Assembly: GCA_018825985.1 (NCBI GenBank)
Contig: JAHKAP010000052.1
Span: forward strand, 6,373-70,372
From: Candidatus Omnitrophota bacterium
Lineage (GTDB): Bacteria; Omnitrophota; Gorgyraeia; Gygaellales; Profunditerraquicolaceae
Direction of reading: 5' to 3'
Length of the DNA stretch: 64,000 bases
Shown here: positions 9,007 through 43,310 of the stretch, piece after piece
Numbering within the stretch: the first letter of the stretch is position 1
Layout: each line of letters begins with the position of its first letter
Made by a program: the position numbers and the translations under genes
Notes under the pieces: generated by a model
The model's database searches: none
Told to the model about the DNA's origin: nothing
Seen by the model: the letters and a program-made list of their open reading frames with translations, nothing else

Positions 9007-9843
9007 ATGCAAGATAAAATTCTGGATTTCCTAAAGTTGAAACAGGATATATCAGGTGCTCACCCGGAGAGATTATCCTCAGCAGGTGTCACCCATCAAT
9101 TGCATACTAAATTTATCGGGCGTAAGGTTTATTATTTCCAAAAAGTAGTTTCTACGATGGACGTGGCAATGCAGTGGGTTACTAAAGGCGCCTGCGAAGG
9201 GGCTTTAGTACTGGCTGAGACTCAGACTAAAGGCAGGGGAAGATTAGGCAGGTTTTGGTCATCGCCTAAATATAAAGGTTTATATTTTTCTTTGATTTTG
9301 AAACCTAAGATCCTGCCATCCGAGGCCTCTATATTTACTCTAATGGCGGCTGTATCTATATGTGAGGCAATTAAAGAGACGACTGAGTTGGAGCCTCAGA
9401 TAAAATGGCCAAATGATATCCTGATCCAGAATAAGAAAGTCGGCGGGATATTAACTGAATTAGACGCTGAAATGGATGAAGTGCGTTTTCTGGTTATTGG
9501 GATTGGCCTGAATGTGAATAATGATAAGGCCGGCATTGTTCTGGGCGCTACCTCTTTAAAGGAGCAGAAGAAAGAAGAAATAAACCGCTTAAGCCTGCTT
9601 CAGGAGATACTGCGCCGGATCGAGGATAATTATCTTGTATTCCAGAAAGAGGGCCCGAGGCCGGTCCTTAAGAAATGGCGCGATTTTAATATTACCCTGG
9701 GTAAAAGGGTAAAGGTAAATTTTCATAAAAAGCATATTGAAGGAGTGGCGGTGGATATCGATGTTGATGGGGCTTTATTGGTGAGGGATAATCCAGGTTT
9801 GATCCATAGGTTTACTGCCGGGGATGTTACCCTCTGCCGGTAA
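9007..9843 (+). CDS. birA: Biotin--[acetyl-CoA-carboxylase] ligase
   Basis: BirA catalytic motif QTKGRGRLGRFWSSP. The N-terminal region may carry an HTH. Confidence 0.8.
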   Translation: MQDKILDFLKLKQDISGAHPERLSSAGVTHQLHTKFIGRKVYYFQKVVSTMDVAMQWVTKGACEGALVLAETQTKGRGRLGRFWSSPKYKGLYFSLILKPKILPSEASIFTLMAAVSICEAIKETTELEPQIKWPNDILIQNKKVGGILTELDAEMDEVRFLVIGIGLNVNNDKAGIVLGATSLKEQKKEEINRLSLLQEILRRIEDNYLVFQKEGPRPVLKKWRDFNITLGKRVKVNFHKKHIEGVAVDIDVDGALLVRDNPGLIHRFTAGDVTLCR

Positions 9844-15423: not shown

Positions 15424-15620
15424 AGCCGATAAAGGCAAACTCTGGGAAACCAGGGGGCCCCTGCGGATTTATCGCAGGGCCCACTTAAGCCAAACGTGTA
15501 AACAGTCTGGCGTAGGCGGGGCAAAGCCACAGGCCTAATCCTGCCGATAGTAGAGGTGGGGATGGCGGCTGGGTTGCCGAAAGGGGCGAGGATATTTTAA
15601 TAGACCCGCCTTTATCGGCT
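15424..15620 (+). ncRNA. Candidate ~197-nt structured RNA of unassigned class (GEMM/c-di-GMP-I-like signatures, or a novel sRNA)
   Basis: 5' AGCCGAUAAAGGC pairs with 3' GCCUUUAUCGGCU (13 bp). Internal CUGG-GAAA-CCAG GNRA hairpin preceded by GCAAAC. 11-bp GC hairpin GGGGGCCCCUGCG/CGCAGGGCCC. GGGGCAAAGCC-ACA-GGCCUAA string. Own promoter and downstream terminator. No ORF. Confidence 0.35.
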
Positions 15621-15697: not shown

Positions 15698-16921
15698 ATG
15701 ATTGTTTTCCCTCAGGGTTTTTTATGGGGCGCGGCCACTTCTGCCCATCAAGTCGAAGGCGAAAATAGAAATAATGATTGGTGGAAGTGGGAGAGGTCCG
15801 CAAATTTGAAAGAAACCTCCGGGAGCGCCTGCCGGCATTACCAGCTTTTTAAAGAAGACTTTGATCTGGCCCGGTCCCTCAATCATAATTGCCATCGTTT
15901 TTCAATCGAATGGAGCCGTATATTTCCTTCCAGCGGCGCAATTTCTCGCGAAGAGCTTACGCATTATCGGAATGTTATCCAGGCGTTAAAAGAACGGGGC
16001 CTGGAGCCTATAGTTAGTCTCCATCATTTTACCAATCCTCTTTGGTTCAGTAAATTAGGCGGCTGGGAGAATCCGGGATCTCAAGGGCACTACTTAAATT
16101 ATGTCCGCAGGGTAGTGGAAGAATTCGCCGATTTGGTTAAATATTGGGTGACTATTAATGAGCCTATGGTTTACGTTTATTATTCTTATGTTATCGGCGC
16201 CTGGCCCCCGCAGGAAAAATCTTTTTTAAAAGCCAGAAGAGTTACCGCTAATCTTATTTCCGCGCATACCCAAGCTTATAAATTGATCCAGGTAATTTAT
16301 AGAAATAAGGGATTGCCTAAGCCTGAGGTTGGCATCGCCAAGAATATGCAGGCTTTTGTTCCCTGCAAAAATAACTTTAGGAACAGATTGGCGGTTTATC
16401 TGCGGGATAAATCATTTAACTTCGATTTTCTAAACAAGTTGGCAAAGTCTAAAACCATGGATTTCATCGGGGTAAACTATTATACCCGTAGCCTGGTTGA
16501 GACTTCCAGTTGGTCGCTGAATAACGTATTGACCCGGATCTGCCAGGACAACCATAGTTCTCTTCTTAAGAATTCCTTAGGTTGGGATATTTACCCTGAA
16601 GGATTAGTCGACCTTTTATTAAGGCTCAAAATTTACGATCTTCCGGTGATAATCCTGGAGAATGGAATTTGTACTATGGATGATGCTCTAAGATGGAATT
16701 TTATTAATCAGCACCTGAAAAGTATAGGCATTGCCTTAGCCAAAGGAGTAAGGATTTCAGGTTATATCTATTGGTCCCTTTTGGATAATTTTGAATGGGA
16801 CAAAGGTTTTGGTCCCCGCTTCGGTTTAATCGGAGTAGATTATTCTGATTTCAGGCGCACGGTCAGAGAGAGCGCAAGAATTTTTTCCCTGGTTTGCAAA
16901 ACCGGGATACTTGAGCAATGA
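15698..16921 (+). CDS. Glycoside hydrolase family 1 beta-glucosidase
   Basis: GH1 N-terminus FPQGFLWGAATSAHQVEG, acid/base region TINEP, nucleophile region ILENG. Extended -10 TGgTATAAT at 15682-15690 lies only 7 nt from the ATG, with no SD, so the mRNA is probably leaderless. Confidence 0.8.
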   Translation: MIVFPQGFLWGAATSAHQVEGENRNNDWWKWERSANLKETSGSACRHYQLFKEDFDLARSLNHNCHRFSIEWSRIFPSSGAISREELTHYRNVIQALKERGLEPIVSLHHFTNPLWFSKLGGWENPGSQGHYLNYVRRVVEEFADLVKYWVTINEPMVYVYYSYVIGAWPPQEKSFLKARRVTANLISAHTQAYKLIQVIYRNKGLPKPEVGIAKNMQAFVPCKNNFRNRLAVYLRDKSFNFDFLNKLAKSKTMDFIGVNYYTRSLVETSSWSLNNVLTRICQDNHSSLLKNSLGWDIYPEGLVDLLLRLKIYDLPVIILENGICTMDDALRWNFINQHLKSIGIALAKGVRISGYIYWSLLDNFEWDKGFGPRFGLIGVDYSDFRRTVRESARIFSLVCKTGILEQ

Positions 16922-18938: not shown

Positions 18939-19406
18939 ATGATCAAGTTTAAAGTTAAAAGTTTAAAGTCTAAAATCAGTCTAGTAAGCGCTTTGAGCCT
19001 TTTGTTTTTTGCCGGGGGATGTTCTTCTTTAGTAAACTATCCTAAAAGATTCTTGGGGCTTTCGACAGTTGAACTAGAGAGGCAGCGCGCTGAAGCGATC
19101 AGTATGGTTTTTAGCTTGGATTATCCGGTTTGTTACGCTAAAACGCAGGATATATTAAAGGAAATCGGGGTTTATATTTACGCTAAGGATAATAAAAAGC
19201 GGATGATCGCTATTTATTTATCAAGCGAGGATACTACACCAGTGGGTTTGTTTTTTAAAGAGATTGCGGTCGGTAAGACAGAAATAGAAGTTTCCTCCCC
19301 GAGTATTTATGGCAAAGAGATTATTGCCAAAAGGGTCTTTACGATGCTGGAAGGATTGCCTGATCCAATGAAGAAGATCGAAAAAGGCAATGAGCAAAAT
19401 AAATAG
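18939..19406 (+). CDS. Lipoprotein, unknown function
   Basis: Signal peptide with lipobox FFAGGCSS. No recognisable catalytic motif. Confidence 0.45.
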   Translation: MIKFKVKSLKSKISLVSALSLLFFAGGCSSLVNYPKRFLGLSTVELERQRAEAISMVFSLDYPVCYAKTQDILKEIGVYIYAKDNKKRMIAIYLSSEDTTPVGLFFKEIAVGKTEIEVSSPSIYGKEIIAKRVFTMLEGLPDPMKKIEKGNEQNK

Positions 19407-22526: not shown

Positions 22527-22584
22527 AATAGAAAAGGGATTTCTCGTTAGTTGATTGGCGAGACGTCCCCTAAGTTTTTGAGAT

Positions 22585-22621
22585 GGGGACACCCTTAGCT
22601 TTAGCTGGGGAGGGTGTCCCC
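22585..22621. repeat. Palindromic hairpin repeat GGGGACACCCT-loop-AGGGTGTCCCC (copy 1 of 3)
   Basis: 11-bp arms. The loop TAGCTTTAGCTG is the reverse complement of the loop of the copy at 46051. Confidence 0.6.
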
Positions 22622-22655
22622 TGCTTTGACTGCCTAAAAATTAGGCATAAAGATA

Positions 22656-22684
22656 TTGACAAAAAACGCATTTATATTATTATA
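22656..22684 (+). promoter_or_regulatory. Sigma70-like promoter (TTGACA-16-TATTAT) for the nfnA/sudB-like operon, followed by a GACGTC hairpin leader
   Basis: TTGACA then a 16-nt spacer then TATTAT. Downstream GAGACGTCC.../GGGCGTCT hairpin with U-rich tail (22699-22737). Confidence 0.4.
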
Positions 22685-22774
22685 AGAGGGCAGACAGAGA
22701 CGTCCGGAACATTTATGGGGCGTCTTTTCCTGTTTTAGGATAGGTATAGTAAAGGTAAAATTAGGGGTATTGAA

Positions 22775-24979: not shown

Positions 24980-25152
24980 AGCGTTAGCCAGTAGTGATAG
25001 CTTGCGCCGCAAAAGTCTTTGCGGCACCAAGCAAAAAATATACGCCAGCCGGCATTTTTTGCTTGACAAAACATTTTGGGCATTTTAAGATAAGCGAGTA
25101 AAAAGACAGGGCCTTTTTTAGAATTTAGCAAGGGCGCGTAAGTTTTAATGAC

Positions 25153-26647: not shown

Positions 26648-26800
26648 TTGACAAATAAAAATTAAGTGCTATATTTATAATAGAAGTACAAAGGTGTAAA
26701 AGAACGCAGGCGTTCGCTCTAAAGGCGAACGTTTTTTTATTTGTAAGGGACTAAAGGCGGTCCAATACCCAATAAAGGGTAAGGGCCGCCTTTTTATTTT
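26648..26800 (+). promoter_or_regulatory. Promoter (TTGACA-16-TATATT) plus leader with mutually exclusive hairpins and two terminator-like structures ahead of the sigma-factor gene
   Basis: GAACG-CAGG-CGUUC hairpin (26702-26715) overlaps terminator CGUUCGC-UCUAAAG-GCGAACG-U7 (26711-26738). Second hairpin GGCGGUCC/GGGCCGCC-U-run (26756-26800) abuts the SD. Confidence 0.45.
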
Positions 26801-26812
26801 AGGAGCGAAGAT

Positions 26813-27328
26813 ATGGAATTTAATGATTTATCAGCTAAATTATCCTCTAAATTGAAGGCTATAGCTTATAGGCTTAATCATCAGTTCACTTTTTTTAACG
26901 AAGAAGACCTATATCAGGAAGCCCTGATTCGTTTATGGGAAGATTCCCGGACCGGGCGCTTAGATGATAAAACAGACAGTTATATCTTACAAGGGTGTTA
27001 TTTTCATCTAAAAAATTATATCCGCAAGAACAGGGTAAAGACAAAGTTGGTGAGTATTGAGGAGAATGTCGGACAGGGGGAAAATAGTTTTGAGGACTTA
27101 TTTTTAAAAGATGAGAAATCGCCTGATCTGCGGGACCGTTTGAACGACTTATTCTTGGCAGAGACGATCCTTAATAACGGGTTTACGTTAAGAGAAAAAC
27201 AGGTCCTCAGGGGATACGCCGAAGGCCTGACTACCCGCCAGATCGGGGAGAAACTGGGGGTTTCGCATGTCAGCGTAGTCAAGATGACTGATAGGATTAG
27301 AAAAAAAAGCCGGAGATATATCGATTAA
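26813..27328 (+). CDS. Sigma-70 family (ECF-like) RNA polymerase sigma factor
   Basis: Region 2-like EDLYQEALIRLWE. Region 4 HTH LTTRQIGEKLGVSHVSVVKM. 171 aa. Confidence 0.65.
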   Translation: MEFNDLSAKLSSKLKAIAYRLNHQFTFFNEEDLYQEALIRLWEDSRTGRLDDKTDSYILQGCYFHLKNYIRKNRVKTKLVSIEENVGQGENSFEDLFLKDEKSPDLRDRLNDLFLAETILNNGFTLREKQVLRGYAEGLTTRQIGEKLGVSHVSVVKMTDRIRKKSRRYID

Positions 27329-27397
27329 ATCCTGACCCCATTTCCCTGATTAGAACCGTCCCTGTTTAAAAAATTGGTTACCAGAGACGGCATATTT

Positions 27398-27473
27398 TTA
27401 CTTGTAATAATGTAGCAGACACGTAGATGTGTAAAAAACAGAGGCGTTCTAGAAATTAAAGAACGCTTTTTTT
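27398..27473 (+). promoter_or_regulatory. TTACTTGTAA palindromic motif plus GCGUUCU/AGAACGC-U7 terminator hairpin (paralog of the 26648 and 32399 leaders)
   Basis: Motif at 27398-27407. Hairpin 27444-27466 followed by T7. Confidence 0.4.
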
Positions 27474-27536
27474 ATTACCGTAATGGGTAAGCCAGCAATC
27501 ATATAAGCTGGGAGATATTACGAGTTTTAAAGACCG

Positions 27537-27582
27537 AGACGTCTTTTAAAATCCAAATAAGGATAAAAGACGTCTTTTTTTT
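27537..27582 (+). promoter_or_regulatory. GACGTC-palindrome terminator hairpin in the porin-amt leader
   Basis: AGACGUCUUUU / AAAAGACGUCU 11-bp stem with a 17-nt loop, followed by U8. Further small hairpins at 27583-27621 before the GGAGG RBS. Confidence 0.45.
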
Positions 27583-27646
27583 CGCCAAAAATCTTGGCGA
27601 ATCCGCCACGTATTGTGGCGGAATTTCTGAACCTAAAGGAGGAAGA

Positions 27647-28455: not shown

Positions 28456-29685
28456 ATGGTAAACACTGGGGATACAGCCTGGGTTTTGATTTCGTCGGCG
28501 CTGGTTTTACTAATGACTCCGGGATTGGCTTTTTTTTACGGAGGAATGGTTAGGCGCAAAAATGTTTTAAGTGTTTTAATGCAGTGTTTTGTGATCATGT
28601 GTGTTTTAAGTTTACAGTGGGTTTTGTTCGGCTATAGCCTTTCTTTTCACCCCTCCAATGGTTTTTGGGGAGGTTTTGGCTGGATGGGTCTTCATGGTGT
28701 GGGTTTGGAGCCTTATGCTGATTATGCCGGGACAATCCCTCATCAGGCATTTATGATTTTTCAGGCAATGTTTGCCATAATTACACCGGCCTTGATTATT
28801 GGCGCGTTTGCCGAACGGATGAAATTTGCCGCTTTCCTGCTCTTTACCGTATTATGGGCAACTTTTGTTTACAATCCTCTTTGTCATTGGGTCTGGGGCT
28901 TAGGCGGTTGGCTGCGCAACTATGGCGCTCTGGATTTTGCCGGAGGAACAGTAGTTCATATTAATGCCGGGATCGCAGCTTTAGTTACTGCGTTAGTGAT
29001 CGGCAAGAGGAAGAATCTGGAGAAAAATGTCCCCTCTCCACATAACCTGCCATTTGTAGTTTTAGGCACTGGTTTATTATGGTTTGGCTGGTTTGGTTTT
29101 AATGCCGGCAGCGCTTTGGCAGCCAATGGTTTAGCGGTGAATGCTTTTGTAGTGACTAATACTGCTGCCGCAGCCGCGGGTCTAAGCTGGGCGCTTATGG
29201 AGTGGATGCGTAATGGTAAACCGACTATATTCGGGCTTTGCAGCGGCGCAGTGGCAGGTTTGGTAGCTATTACTCCGGCAGCCGGATATGTGAGCGTAAT
29301 TCCGGCGATAATCATTGGTATATTGGTCAGCTTGTTTTGTTTTGCCGCAGTCAGCGTTATTAAGCCTAAATTAGGCTATGATGATTCTTTGGACGCCTTT
29401 GGGGTGCACTGCGTGGGCGGAATATGGGGAGCTTTAGCTACAGGGTTATTCGCTTCTAAAGCAGTAAATCCGGCAGGAGCTAATGGTTTGTTCTTTGGAA
29501 ATCCCCAGCAGTTTCTAATCCAATTATTTACTGTTTTAGTTACAGTTGTTTACGCAGGAGTAGTAACTTTTGTGATTTACAAGGTAGTGGATTTTATTAT
29601 CGGTGTGCGGGTTAATGAGAAGGCTGAATCTTTAGGGCTTGATCTTACCCAGCACAGGGAAAGGGCGTATACCGTACTAGAATAA
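28456..29685 (+). CDS. amt: Ammonium transporter
   Basis: Amt/MEP signatures throughout (DFAGGTVVHINAGIAAL, twin-His region). 11 TM helices. Confidence 0.9.
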   Translation: MVNTGDTAWVLISSALVLLMTPGLAFFYGGMVRRKNVLSVLMQCFVIMCVLSLQWVLFGYSLSFHPSNGFWGGFGWMGLHGVGLEPYADYAGTIPHQAFMIFQAMFAIITPALIIGAFAERMKFAAFLLFTVLWATFVYNPLCHWVWGLGGWLRNYGALDFAGGTVVHINAGIAALVTALVIGKRKNLEKNVPSPHNLPFVVLGTGLLWFGWFGFNAGSALAANGLAVNAFVVTNTAAAAAGLSWALMEWMRNGKPTIFGLCSGAVAGLVAITPAAGYVSVIPAIIIGILVSLFCFAAVSVIKPKLGYDDSLDAFGVHCVGGIWGALATGLFASKAVNPAGANGLFFGNPQQFLIQLFTVLVTVVYAGVVTFVIYKVVDFIIGVRVNEKAESLGLDLTQHRERAYTVLE

Positions 29686-29722
29686 AAGTAGGTAGTATAT
29701 AGTAGGTAATATGTAGGTAAAA
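29686..29722 (+). promoter_or_regulatory. Three direct repeats of GTAGGTA(A) in the amt-glnK intergenic region
   Basis: GTAGGTA at 29688, 29702 and 29713 (spacing 14 and 11 nt). Confidence 0.35.
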
Positions 29723-30092: not shown

Positions 30093-30116
30093 GCTTTTGG
30101 TTACCGGGGTAAACTT

Positions 30117-30150
30117 AATTTTACTTGTAAAATATTGGGTAATTTGTGGT
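30117..30150 (+). promoter_or_regulatory. AATTTTAC-TT-GTAAAAT palindrome plus GGTAA direct repeats upstream of glnN
   Basis: Near-perfect 17-bp palindrome centred on TTACTTGTAA (30121-30130). GGTAA half-sites at +12 and +22. Confidence 0.35.
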
Positions 30151-30182
30151 AAAATAATATATAAATAAAAAAGGGGGAAGTT

Positions 30183-32372: not shown

Positions 32373-32398
32373 AAAAAGGTTACCAGGCGGCTACAATC

Positions 32399-32508
32399 TT
32401 TACTTGTATATATAGGTAAAGACTGCACGTTGTAGTGCATCAGTAGCCGACTAATTTAAAGAACGCAGGCGTTCATCTTCGTTTGGTAACGGGGTGAGCG
32501 CCTTTTTT
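32399..32508 (+). promoter_or_regulatory. Leader with TTTACTTGTA motif, TGCAC-N6-GTGCA palindrome, and GAACG-CAGG-CGUUC hairpin overlapping a terminator
   Basis: AAAGAACGCAGGCGTTC 17-mer is identical to the one at 26697-26715. Terminator GGCGUUCA/UGAGCGCC followed by U6 (32468-32508). NtrC-box-like palindrome at 32424-32439. Confidence 0.45.
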
Positions 32509-32541: not shown

Positions 32542-32919
32542 ATGATCACAATATTGATCACTGAAGACGAATTAAAAGCCAAGGATGCCTTGGCTAAGGC
32601 GCTCTCTCAGGAAGGGTATGCCTTATCCGAAGGTTTTAATGATTCGAATATGATCCGGATAGTAAAAAAAGATTGTATCCGGGATTTGGCTTTTATCAAA
32701 GATAAAGTGATCGAGCTGGAAGACGCTTTAGTCAATGAAAAGAAAGGGTTTTTGTATAAGTCTGTGTTGGAGGCTATTGAAAAACCACTTATTGAACATA
32801 TCCTGGAGCGCACCGAGGGAAATCAGTTAAAGGCAGCCAGGATTCTGGGGATTAACCGTAATACTATGCGCTCTAAAATTAAAAAACTGGGGATTAGCGC
32901 GGCAAAATGGAAGGTTTGA
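32542..32919 (+). CDS. Stand-alone Fis/NtrC-type HTH DNA-binding protein
   Basis: C-terminal 45 aa (EKPLIEHILERTEGNQLKAARILGINRNTMRSKIKKLGI) match the HTH_8 DNA-binding domain of sigma54 activators. No receiver or AAA+ domain. Confidence 0.6.
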   Translation: MITILITEDELKAKDALAKALSQEGYALSEGFNDSNMIRIVKKDCIRDLAFIKDKVIELEDALVNEKKGFLYKSVLEAIEKPLIEHILERTEGNQLKAARILGINRNTMRSKIKKLGISAAKWKV

Positions 32920-41495: not shown

Positions 41496-43224
<1,729 letters not shown>

Positions 43225-43310
43225 GTAAAGGTAAAGAAAAGATCAGTACGGATTCCAGGTTTTCTCTGCCTATTCCTATACCTGTACCTAGTTATATTAA
43301 GGAATAATAA

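Follow-up and report, generated by a model that had tools for sequence, protein, structure and literature searches.

Extracytoplasmic function (ECF, group 4) sigma factors, such as E. coli sigma-E, B. subtilis SigW and M. tuberculosis SigH and SigL, are small two-domain proteins (regions 2 and 4) that read promoters made of two short conserved blocks at rigid spacing, have a target promoter beside their own gene and serve a small dedicated regulon. An adjacent anti-sigma gene and autoregulation are common in ECF systems without being obligatory, and their absence is atypical. Core nitrogen assimilation in other bacteria is usually run by sigma-54/NtrC, GlnR/TnrA, NtcA or AmtR, and palindromic nitrogen operators include TGTNAN7TNACA for TnrA/GlnR, GTAN8TAC for NtcA and GGAAN6TTCC for NrpR. 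For the Omnitrophota, a widespread and uncultured phylum, we know of no work on gene regulation. ANTAR proteins act on RNAs with dual hairpins, whose hexanucleotide loops carry A at position 1 and G at position 4, and which compete with a terminator and typically lie upstream of nitrogen genes (PMC3369931); in the GnfK/GnfR nitrogen cascade of Geobacter, ANTAR antitermination is layered on an initiation regulator (PMC2995071). Here we compare with these systems a 64-kb window of a Candidatus Omnitrophota genome (contig JAHKAP010000052.1; by the window we mean the whole stretch of 64,000 nucleotides), which contains a nitrogen-assimilation supercluster with all genes on the + strand. An earlier note on this DNA had proposed GGTAA/GTAGGTAA direct repeats and a TTAC-TT-GTAA palindrome as the motifs of a shared regulon. 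We find that a bipartite element, GGTTACCA-N13-TTTACTTGTA, has TTACTTGTA as its downstream half and is probably the promoter for a sigma factor dedicated to nitrogen-assimilation genes across Omnitrophota, and that the GGTAA words belong to several unrelated features.

To place the window in context, we collected 928 homologues of its sigma-like protein, of which 27 were aligned (alignment A1), and fetched 80 genomic loci with 10-kb flanks, all by way of the sigma gene. Motif counts below refer to 81 loci and 1.13 Mb. Within the window, GGTTACC-N14-TTTACTTGTA occurs three times with zero mismatches (27376, 30099 and 32378), while 0.12 occurrences are expected even if three mismatches are allowed. 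These exact copies lie upstream of porin-amtB-glnK (27376–27406, +), of glnN (30099–30129, +) and of the Fis-type helix-turn-helix (HTH) gene and gltBD (32378–32408, +). The TTAC-TT-GTAA word, which had been placed at all three promoters, is exact as TTACTTGTAA only inside the first two (27398 and 30121; two occurrences in the window against 0.10 expected), and the third site reads TTACTTGTAT at 32400. Nor is TTACTTGTAA a true palindrome, since its reverse complement is TTACAAGTAA.

A relaxed search for GTTAC-N13..19-ACTTGTA over the loci returned 137 sites, and although spacings of 13–19 nt were allowed, all had the single spacing GTTAC-N18-ACTTGTA. All lie on the gene strand and 135 are intergenic, upstream of genes for porin, AmtB, PII, glnN, fis-gltB, type I glnA and outer-membrane proteins. 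Counted from the downstream half, 137 of the 196 ACTTGTA heptamers on both strands have GTTAC exactly 23 nt upstream. Positions outside the search pattern are near-invariant (C5 in 137/137, A6 in 136/137 and T22 in 135/137), R stands at +7, a run of T precedes TAC and an A-tract occupies -8 to -5; the consensus reads A-tract, rGGTTACCAr, N9, TTyTTTACTTGTA. The base after GTA is A in 25, C in 3, G in 44 and T in 65 of the sites. We rejected TTAC-TT-GTAA as a palindromic operator of inverted GTAA half-sites, since the A that would complete GTAA is present in 25 of 137 sites, no dyad symmetry is kept and orientation is strict. With the known palindromic nitrogen operators the element shares GTA/TAC-containing words upstream of nitrogen genes; it differs from them in having no dyad, in being strictly oriented and in its bipartite form with 13 non-conserved bases between the blocks. 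What survives of the earlier proposal of a shared site upstream of ammonium and glutamine genes is therefore TTACTTGTA, as part of a phylum-conserved element, with another motif and another mechanism than those proposed.

The position of the element relative to the leader RNAs described below suggests how it would work. Measured from ACTTGTA, the first hairpin of the leader starts at a median distance of 12 nt (mode 10). The transcription start would therefore lie in the gap between the two, which would put ACTTGTA near -10 and GGTTACCA near -35. On inspection of its consensus, the element fits neither a sigma-54 promoter nor a housekeeping -10, and it offers no hexamer with A at position 2 and T at position 6. 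Canonical TTGACA-16/17-TAnnnT promoters are present in window spacers that lack the element, upstream of nfnA (22656), gdhA (25063) and the sigma gene (26648). Because the element has no canonical -10 while the same loci use canonical promoters elsewhere, a different sigma is implied. We propose that RNA polymerase carrying an ECF-type sigma encoded at 26813–27328 (+) recognises the bipartite element, with TTACTTGTA as its -10-proximal half. The element would drive porin-amtB-glnK, glnN and fis-gltBD in the window and, across Omnitrophota, extra amtB-glnK pairs, PII genes, outer-membrane proteins and glnA as well.

The presumed reader of the element, a 171-aa protein of the sigma-70 family, is probably an ECF-type sigma factor, as predicted from sequence profiles and a structural model. 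TIGR02937 (sigma70-ECF) matches it over its full length (residues 3–168) with 48.4 bits against a cutoff of 42.9, and a profile search of PDB sequences matches FliA, SigB and WhiG. The AlphaFold model averages 76.6 in predicted local distance difference test score (pLDDT), and its linker, residues 77–104, is of low confidence. All 50 of the 50 PDB matches listed by Foldseek are sigma-factor structures or complexes, mostly ECF (SigH, SigL, AlgU, sigma-E, SigW, SigK), with probabilities up to 1.0; their template-modelling (TM) scores are low, about 0.35, because of domain orientation. Residues of the predicted DNA-reading helices are invariant across the 27 aligned family members, which fits the invariant promoter. 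All named members among the 928 homologues are labelled Omnitrophota or Omnitrophica. The gene is syntenic with nitrogen genes: in almost every locus it heads the order sigma-(PII)-(porin)-[amtB-glnK]n-glnN-fis-gltB, and the distance from the sigma stop to the start of the element downstream is at most 30 nt in 60 of the 81 loci and at most 120 nt in 75 of them. The same 171-aa sequence is encoded on contig JAHJDV010000031 of GCA_018812325.1, a Candidatus Omnitrophota metagenome-assembled genome (MAG).

An alternative is that the bipartite element is real but not sigma-specific. In that case GGTTACCA would be an activator site overlapping the -35 region, bound by a LuxR-type 171-aa protein or by the Fis-HTH protein, and TACTTGTA would be a poor housekeeping -10, as in class II activation. 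Such a scheme would accommodate the Pfam scores of the 171-aa protein, in which Sigma70_r2 fails to reach its cutoff of 24 bits (20.1 bits, E = 5.7e-4) and the C-terminal domain scores best as GerE/LuxR; it would also accommodate the near dyad symmetry of GGTTACC (GGTnACC) and the likeness of the upstream A-tract to an UP element. However, the ECF sigma superfamily model is matched full length and above its cutoff, the N-terminal half is confidently helical (pLDDT about 90 for residues 1–70), and the structural matches are whole ECF sigmas and not response-regulator output domains. The two halves of the element are moreover equally invariant and the downstream one is without the housekeeping A2/T6, and rigid spacing of invariant blocks is typical of direct contact by sigma regions 4 and 2. 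We therefore regard the activator scheme as unlikely.

Several observations weigh against the sigma-promoter interpretation. Its support is all comparative, and since the loci were all fetched via the sigma gene, the association of sigma and motif is partly built in. The element lacks the usual ECF 'AAC' -35 and 'CGT' -10 signatures. No anti-sigma gene was found next to the sigma gene in the loci, where the downstream neighbours are a target promoter and PII, porin or amtB, and the upstream neighbour is gdhA, nadE or a GAF-ANTAR gene; nor was positive autoregulation seen, the bipartite motif standing upstream of sigma in 0 of about 78 loci. Because of the sub-threshold Sigma70_r2 match and the GerE/LuxR score noted above, we also leave a small chance that the 171-aa protein is a transcription factor other than a sigma. 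The predicted sigma nonetheless shares with the ECF sigmas the traits listed at the outset, namely small two-domain size, two short blocks at rigid spacing, a target promoter beside its gene and a small dedicated regulon. It differs from them in its promoter, GGTTACCA ... TACTTGTA, which is without the common signatures; in having no adjacent anti-sigma and an own promoter that is not sigma-driven, its supply apparently being set by an ANTAR attenuator; and in its regulon, which is core nitrogen assimilation.

Dual hexaloop hairpins lie downstream of the element promoters and also upstream of nfnA, gdhA, sigma and pyrG, and we tested the leaders at 22674, 25140, 26686, 27419, 27532, 32425 and 41542 as ANTAR target RNA. 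By direct reading of the sequence, the 3' half of the second hairpin in each pair is the 5' arm of an intrinsic terminator. Gene-strand GAAC-N6-GTTC loops have G at position 4 in nearly all cases and mostly A at position 1, with G instead in GCAGGC loops; the sigma and fis leaders of the window carry a GCAGGC loop and deviate at this position. For scoring, a covariance model, R1, was built from an alignment of 46 sequences (A2). Compensatory changes are seen in A2 at pair 2-13 (CG 25, UA 19, GC 2) and pair 24-35 (GC 19, AU 18, GU 7); as a point on the other side, the A2 seed was chosen for pairing, so that the paired fraction is partly built in and the covariation alone is informative.

The porin-amtB leader (27419–27473, +), which is in the seed, combines ACAC-GTAGAT-GTGT with AAC-AGAGGC-GTT overlapping the terminator and scores 35.7 bits with R1 (E = 2.8e-7), and a second porin-amtB attenuator lies at about 27532–27595 (+). 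The sigma leader (26686–26738, +; terminator 26708–26734) is matched with E = 0.009 and is preceded by TTGACA-16-TATATT at 26648. In the fis-gltBD leader (32425–32508, +), the first hairpin (P1) is GCAC-GTTGTA-GTGC and the second (P2), overlapping the terminator, is GAAC-GCAGGC-GTTC; because the linker is long, R1 finds the halves separately, at 32425 and 32453 (E = 1.6 and 1.9). The nfnA-like leader (22674–22728, +; P2 GAC-AGAGAC-GTC and terminator) has E = 0.1 and is kept in L087, which together with L089 is the nearest relative of the window (AmtB 97% and 95% identical); of the two, L087 alone covers the other spacers. R1 gives E = 1 for the gdhA leader at 25140 (+) and E = 0.015 for the pyrG leader at 41542 (+). 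The product of pyrG, CTP synthase, is a glutamine amidotransferase. The gene is preceded (41500–41610, +) by an extended -10 of its own (TGTGGTATACT), after which come an ANTAR-like P2 with the sequence AAAC-AAAGGC-GTTT and a terminator. The pyrG leader suggests that the ANTAR regulon reaches beyond ammonium assimilation.

Across the loci, R1 has 94 matches at E<=0.01, and 94/94 are on the gene strand, clustered just after the element and 140–240 nt upstream of sigma; the amtB-glnK spacer has no R1 match. Together these features identify the leaders, at the level of sequence and predicted pairing, as ANTAR-type attenuators of which the GGTAA words form no part. The earlier suggestion that those words may belong to an RNA element thus points to the right neighbourhood, the RNA elements being close by, and to the wrong sequence. 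In 42 loci the 10 kb preceding sigma contain a gene for a GAF-ANTAR protein (PF03861), which in about 22 of them is the immediate upstream neighbour, at a distance of about 200 nt. Such genes occur in L011, L016, L036, L041, L054–L056, L059, L061, L074 and others at about 9050–9830, in L090 at 1199–1927 and in L092 at 172–876; they are of two paralogous types, and some loci have both. It counts against the proposed control that a tblastn search for GAF-ANTAR found no ANTAR protein gene in the 64-kb window.

Because the sigma leader and most sigma-dependent operons carry ANTAR attenuators and the GAF-ANTAR gene adjoins sigma in many species, we infer, and do no more than infer, a GAF-ANTAR/sigma cascade. 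The sigma gene itself would be transcribed from a canonical TTGACA/TATAAT-type promoter into an ANTAR-type attenuator, where a GAF-ANTAR protein would allow read-through and thus sigma synthesis. The sigma would then transcribe from target promoters whose leaders need ANTAR again, forming a feed-forward AND gate for nitrogen assimilation. With the known ANTAR systems (EutV, NasR, AmiR; Geobacter GnfK/GnfR; PMC3369931, PMC2995071) these leaders share two hexaloop hairpins, G at position 4, mostly A at position 1 and terminator competition; they likewise precede genes for PII, ammonium transporters and glutamate and glutamine synthases, and in the proposed cascade ANTAR control would again be stacked on a regulator of initiation. 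They differ in that the sensor is GAF-ANTAR and not receiver-ANTAR, the initiation layer is an ECF-type sigma and not sigma-54/GnfM, the sigma gene is itself an ANTAR target, and some loops begin with G.

We turn now to the GGTAA words. Had they, with the GTAA half-sites at helical-turn spacing, been operators of one DNA-binding regulator, for example the Fis-type HTH protein, we would have a simple account of why 12 of the 15 intergenic GGTAA copies of the window fall in about 1.5 kb of nitrogen-gene spacers and why several pairs stand 10–14 nt apart, and a Fis-type HTH gene is indeed conserved in the cluster. This 125-aa protein (32542–32919, +) has a C-terminal Fis/NtrC-type HTH and a weakly receiver-like N-terminus; its gene overlaps the gltB start (32907) and is kept upstream of gltB phylum-wide. 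However, GGTAA is no denser between genes than within them: overall intergenic enrichment over coding sequence was not found in the window (2.67 against 2.23 per kb), in spite of the concentration in nitrogen spacers. The pairs are not kept in the nearest relative, L087, which retains GGTAA at 2 of about 9 comparable positions (30138 and 32415); those at 27486, 30108, 30148 and 32485 are altered, and the amtB-glnK and nfnA instances are gone. The copy at 32415 is not conserved in more distant species. Since the GTAA half of the 'palindrome' is also present in just 25 of 137 sites and the instances have other explanations (extended -10 box, hairpin arm, tandem repeat), we consider control by one such regulator very improbable.

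Those other explanations differ from site to site. Upstream of glnN, the GGTAA pair that had been placed at 30147 and 30157 stands at 30138 and 30148 (TGGTAA starts at 30147), and there is no copy at 30157. The word at 30148 is covered by TGGTAAAAT (30147–30155, +), the predicted extended -10 box of a second, housekeeping-type glnN promoter. Of 31 species, 21 have the pattern TGnTAnnnT 26–117 nt ahead of the ATG of glnN, mostly directly after the leader terminator. In most species (31 loci) glnN has two serial promoters, the sigma-type element followed by an ANTAR leader/terminator, and then the extended -10. The leader/terminator between the two is missing in the window (30099–30182) and in L087, and therefore glnN there would escape attenuation.

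Upstream of carA, three GGTAA copies are present as had been described, with the qualification that two of them touch pyrG: the word at 43212 is inside its coding sequence, and that at 43224 has its first base in common with the end of the stop codon (TAG, 43222–43224), which GTAGGTAA at 43221 also overlaps. The copies at 43212, 43224 and 43230 form the 5' arm of an intercistronic pyrG-carA hairpin (43209–43290, +), in which Tandem Repeats Finder (TRF) and RNA folding pair 4.7 copies of AAAGGT, with the three GGTAA copies, with 3.7 copies of CCTATA/TACCT (partner array 43269–43290). The hairpin folds to -26.9 kcal/mol (z = -2.43; 5 of 200 shuffles fold as well). No U-tract follows it, and it is for that reason not an intrinsic terminator. 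The GGTA/GGTAA words at 22743/22754, upstream of the nfnA-like operon, and at 32415 are present where they had been reported; the former pair follows the terminator of the nfnA leader, and L087, which conserves that leader, has altogether different sequence at this point. On this comparison the remaining GGTAA copies appear to be non-conserved chance words. Thus GGTAA/GTAGGTAA direct repeats fail as a regulon motif when orthologous promoters are compared (the amtB-glnK spacer in L087 and L089, the others in L087), as does the idea that their helical-turn spacing serves one transcription factor, and phylogenetic footprinting separates them from TTACTTGTA, which persists where they are absent. 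The GGTAA words are unfit as a regulon motif here.

The GTAGGTA words between amtB and glnK are of yet another kind. Three copies are present as claimed, at 29688, 29702 and 29713 and so 14 and 11 nt apart, in the spacer that runs from the amtB stop (29685) to the glnK ATG (29751), the first as GTAGGTAG and the second and third as GTAGGTAA. TRF describes 29687–29716 as a period-14 repeat of 2.1 copies with 87% matches, and the whole tandem repeat (29687–29720, +), within the amtB-glnK intercistronic spacer, consists of a 14-nt unit of two heptads in 2.1 copies with the overlapping third GTAGGTAA. The window has 9 copies of GTAGGTA where 4.3 are expected (at least 9 in 5 of 100 shuffles). When the window was simulated with a first-order Markov model, 26 of 300 runs produced some 7-mer in triplicate within 35 nt, so that the triple by itself is only weakly unusual (p about 0.09). 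TAG or TAA recurs at a 7-nt period (TAG 29693, TAG 29700, TAA 29707, TAG 29714). An in-frame backup TAG stop lies two codons past the amtB stop (29683–29691) and is kept in the GTAGGTA-type spacers of L042, L044 and L033, and TAG at a 7-nt period shuts all three frames within 20 nt after amtB.

The amtB-glnK spacer is highly variable among species. In L087 and L089 it is without GTAGGTA and has instead an unrelated hairpin of GGTTGKC heptamers and their complements. Spacers like that of the window are found in L042, L044 and twice in L033 (AmtB 85–87% identical), and also at L074:7796–7905, a copy flanked by quite other genes, one for an AsnC-type regulator and one for an aminotransferase. In ungapped alignment their identity to the window is 28–29 of 36 (L042, L044 and the first L074 copy) and 23–24 of 36 for the others (p <= 0.0005 against shuffles). 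Common to them are two 14-mers, GTAGGTAGnAnATA, then GGnAAAA, with TAG every seventh base; the third GTAGGTA 'copy' of the window is not a copy in these relatives. The spacer RNA is unstructured (minimum free energy -10.5 kcal/mol, z = +0.34), its core folding to -2.4 kcal/mol against a mean of about -24 for the amtB-glnK spacer of other species. RNA folding gave no inverted partner array or hairpin for the window repeat, and the + strand of the spacer has no promoter motif, terminator or ANTAR match. A sigma-70 scan returned a weak 9/12 match on the minus strand (29721–29694).

Heptad periodicity is more general than this one repeat. Lag-7 repeats (at least 20/28 matches) occur in 16 intergenic regions of the loci, one of them a run of N, compared with 1–4 at other lags from 4 to 14. 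Period-7 arrays are about ten-fold enriched in amtB-glnK spacers, at 7 of 34 against 13 of 533 other spacers (p = 6.6e-5). The heptamer differs from species to species, mostly as two inverted arrays that form a hairpin. The window repeat has the 7-nt tandem form and the intergenic position of this group, but it is degenerate, with a lag-7 score of 16/28 that is below the clear arrays of its relatives. Inverted 7-nt-array hairpins lie in the amtB-glnK spacers of L024, L040, L029, L059, L074, L081 (two), L085, L087 and L089. A period-7 TRF match at 18945–18975 was rejected as an intergenic array, being lysine-rich coding sequence. We also scanned metagenomes with GTAGNTAGNNNATAGNAGNTAR, the degenerate repeat, for further amtB-glnK spacers of the window type. 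At least 120 contigs matched; the matches listed are for the most part long (GTAGNTA)n arrays, in many cases accompanied by an inverted partner, and in none of them is amtB or glnK near the repeat.

Because the repeat is degenerate, has no partner arm, is unstructured and C-poor and closes all frames, we read it as an mRNA spacer and not as an operator. On the comparative evidence it is best described as a fast-evolving heptad-periodic spacer repeat in the amtB-glnK mRNA, which would form an unstructured, C-poor, stop-codon-dense stretch ahead of the glnK ribosome-binding site and, if active at all, would act at the RNA level. Heptad arrays evolve fast, and different species have unrelated heptamers in this same spacer. 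A rival reading is that replication slippage produced the repeat neutrally and that it serves no function. Given no more than 2.1 copies of the 14-mer, a chance 7-mer triple in about 9% of simulated windows and the fast turnover of the spacer between close relatives, this possibility is a serious one, though the less probable. Against it stand the 28–29 of 36 identity to spacers of species with 85–87% AmtB identity and of one other locus (p<0.0005 against shuffles), the lag-7 excess and the enrichment in the amtB-glnK spacer.

The regular TAG triplets also recall a known RNA site, that of HutP in the Bacillus hut operon, which is UAG-N4-UAG-N4-UAG. The window likewise has at least three UAG triplets 4 nt apart, at a 7-nt period, on single-stranded RNA; it differs in having no HutP match among the 18 window proteins scanned and no terminator overlap, and in that the heptamers of relatives are non-UAG. 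We take the likeness as a resemblance only. Were the array nonetheless a specific RNA-protein recognition site, tuning glnK translation or amtB-glnK mRNA processing, this would agree with the strict 7-nt period of TAG/TAA (four in the window, four to five in L042 and L044, two sets in L074), with retention in lineages of saturated synonymous divergence, and with the enrichment of heptad arrays in this spacer and its single-stranded RNA. We think it improbable, since the two closest relatives carry the unrelated heptamer hairpin instead, other species' heptamers have no TAG, the repeat overlaps no terminator, no HutP match was found in the proteins scanned (a genome-wide search was not possible) and (GTAGNTA)n arrays occur in many unrelated metagenomic contexts.

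Two results sit uneasily with the spacer interpretation. Folding energies of sense and antisense strands in 52 amtB-glnK spacers showed no asymmetry (p = 0.19), which does not separate an RNA-level from a DNA-level role. The GTAGGTA-type spacer is also kept in lineages merely 85–87% identical in AmtB, and heptad arrays are enriched in precisely this spacer; retention and enrichment hint at a function beyond that of a spacer. Heptad-periodic elements recurrent between amtB and glnK could be a new class of intercistronic control element. Their nearest described counterparts are the short tandemly repeated repetitive (STRR) or heptamer repeats of cyanobacteria, such as the hupS-hupL hairpin (PMC2670836) and the heptamer repeats near start codons in Nostoc (bioRxiv 10.1101/2022.06.06.494920). 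Shared with these are the 7-nt unit in few tandem copies, the intergenic or intercistronic position near a start codon, the frequent inverted pair forming a hairpin, and a heptamer that varies by site. The window copy differs in phylum and heptamer, in being a degenerate 14-mer of two unlike heptads and in lacking an inverted partner, and the recurrent amtB-glnK placement is specific to the Omnitrophota genomes.

The genes around these elements are, in order on the + strand, an nfnA/gltD-like pair (starts 22775 and 23588), gdhA (25248), the sigma gene, a TorF/Gcw_chp porin-like gene (27647), amtB (28456), glnK, the type III glutamine synthetase gene glnN (30183), the Fis-type HTH gene, gltB, gltD (37446), a PPDK_N protein gene (38928), pyrG (41611), carA (43311) and carB (44389). 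Repetitive extragenic palindromic (REP)-like inverted repeats, GGGGACAC...GTGTCCCC and GGGACGGTTCT...AGAACCGTCCC, occur in the window at 22560–22625 and about 27335–27365, and at L087:10517–10600. The GGGACGGTTCT...AGAACCGTCCC repeat is complete after the sigma gene in L087 and L089, with a remnant alone in the window, and a GGGGACGGTTCT REP-like hairpin also fills the amtB-glnK spacer in L018, L022 and L043. An Rfam scan of the whole window returned a cyclic di-GMP-I riboswitch alone (RF01051, 41 bits against a gathering score of 35), at 15424–15581 (+), and no match at the GTAGGTA site. The riboswitch lies upstream of an open reading frame (15698–16921) that the annotation of the identical contig gives as a glycoside hydrolase family 1 protein.

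Taken together, the best joint explanation of this locus is a sigma promoter and ANTAR cascade at the nitrogen operons, a heptad spacer repeat between amtB and glnK, an extended -10 box at glnN, and a hairpin arm and chance words elsewhere; we give it a probability of roughly two in three. Taken singly, the components are of known kinds: a sigma of ECF type and its bipartite promoter, attenuators of ANTAR type on nitrogen genes, and STRR-like repeats. Literature searches on an Omnitrophota nitrogen sigma, or on an ECF group tied to amtB or glutamine synthetase, found nothing relevant, and we did not find the combination described in them: a sigma family whose named members are all from Omnitrophota and that has no anti-sigma, a supply apparently set by ANTAR, an invariant and unusual promoter, and an ammonium-assimilation regulon. 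We lean, by a small margin over even odds, towards a phylum-wide version, in which amtB, PII/glnK, glnN/glnA, gltBD and outer-membrane channels are placed under GGTTACCA-N13-TTTACTTGTA, an ECF sigma without anti-sigma and double gating by GAF-ANTAR, which would stand in for sigma-54/NtrC, GlnR/TnrA and NtcA.

The heptad arrays take the unexplained STRR phenomenon beyond cyanobacteria, and the amtB-glnK spacer offers a defined, recurrent site at which to study it. If the sigma-promoter account is true, one 31-nt element and one small sigma would define the nitrogen regulon of an entire phylum, and this regulon would be predictable in any MAG by a simple pattern search. The sigma and its promoter would make a testable part, transferable to E. 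coli. Central nitrogen assimilation in the Omnitrophota would then be under the control of an ECF-type sigma and ANTAR attenuation, and not of the classical regulators.

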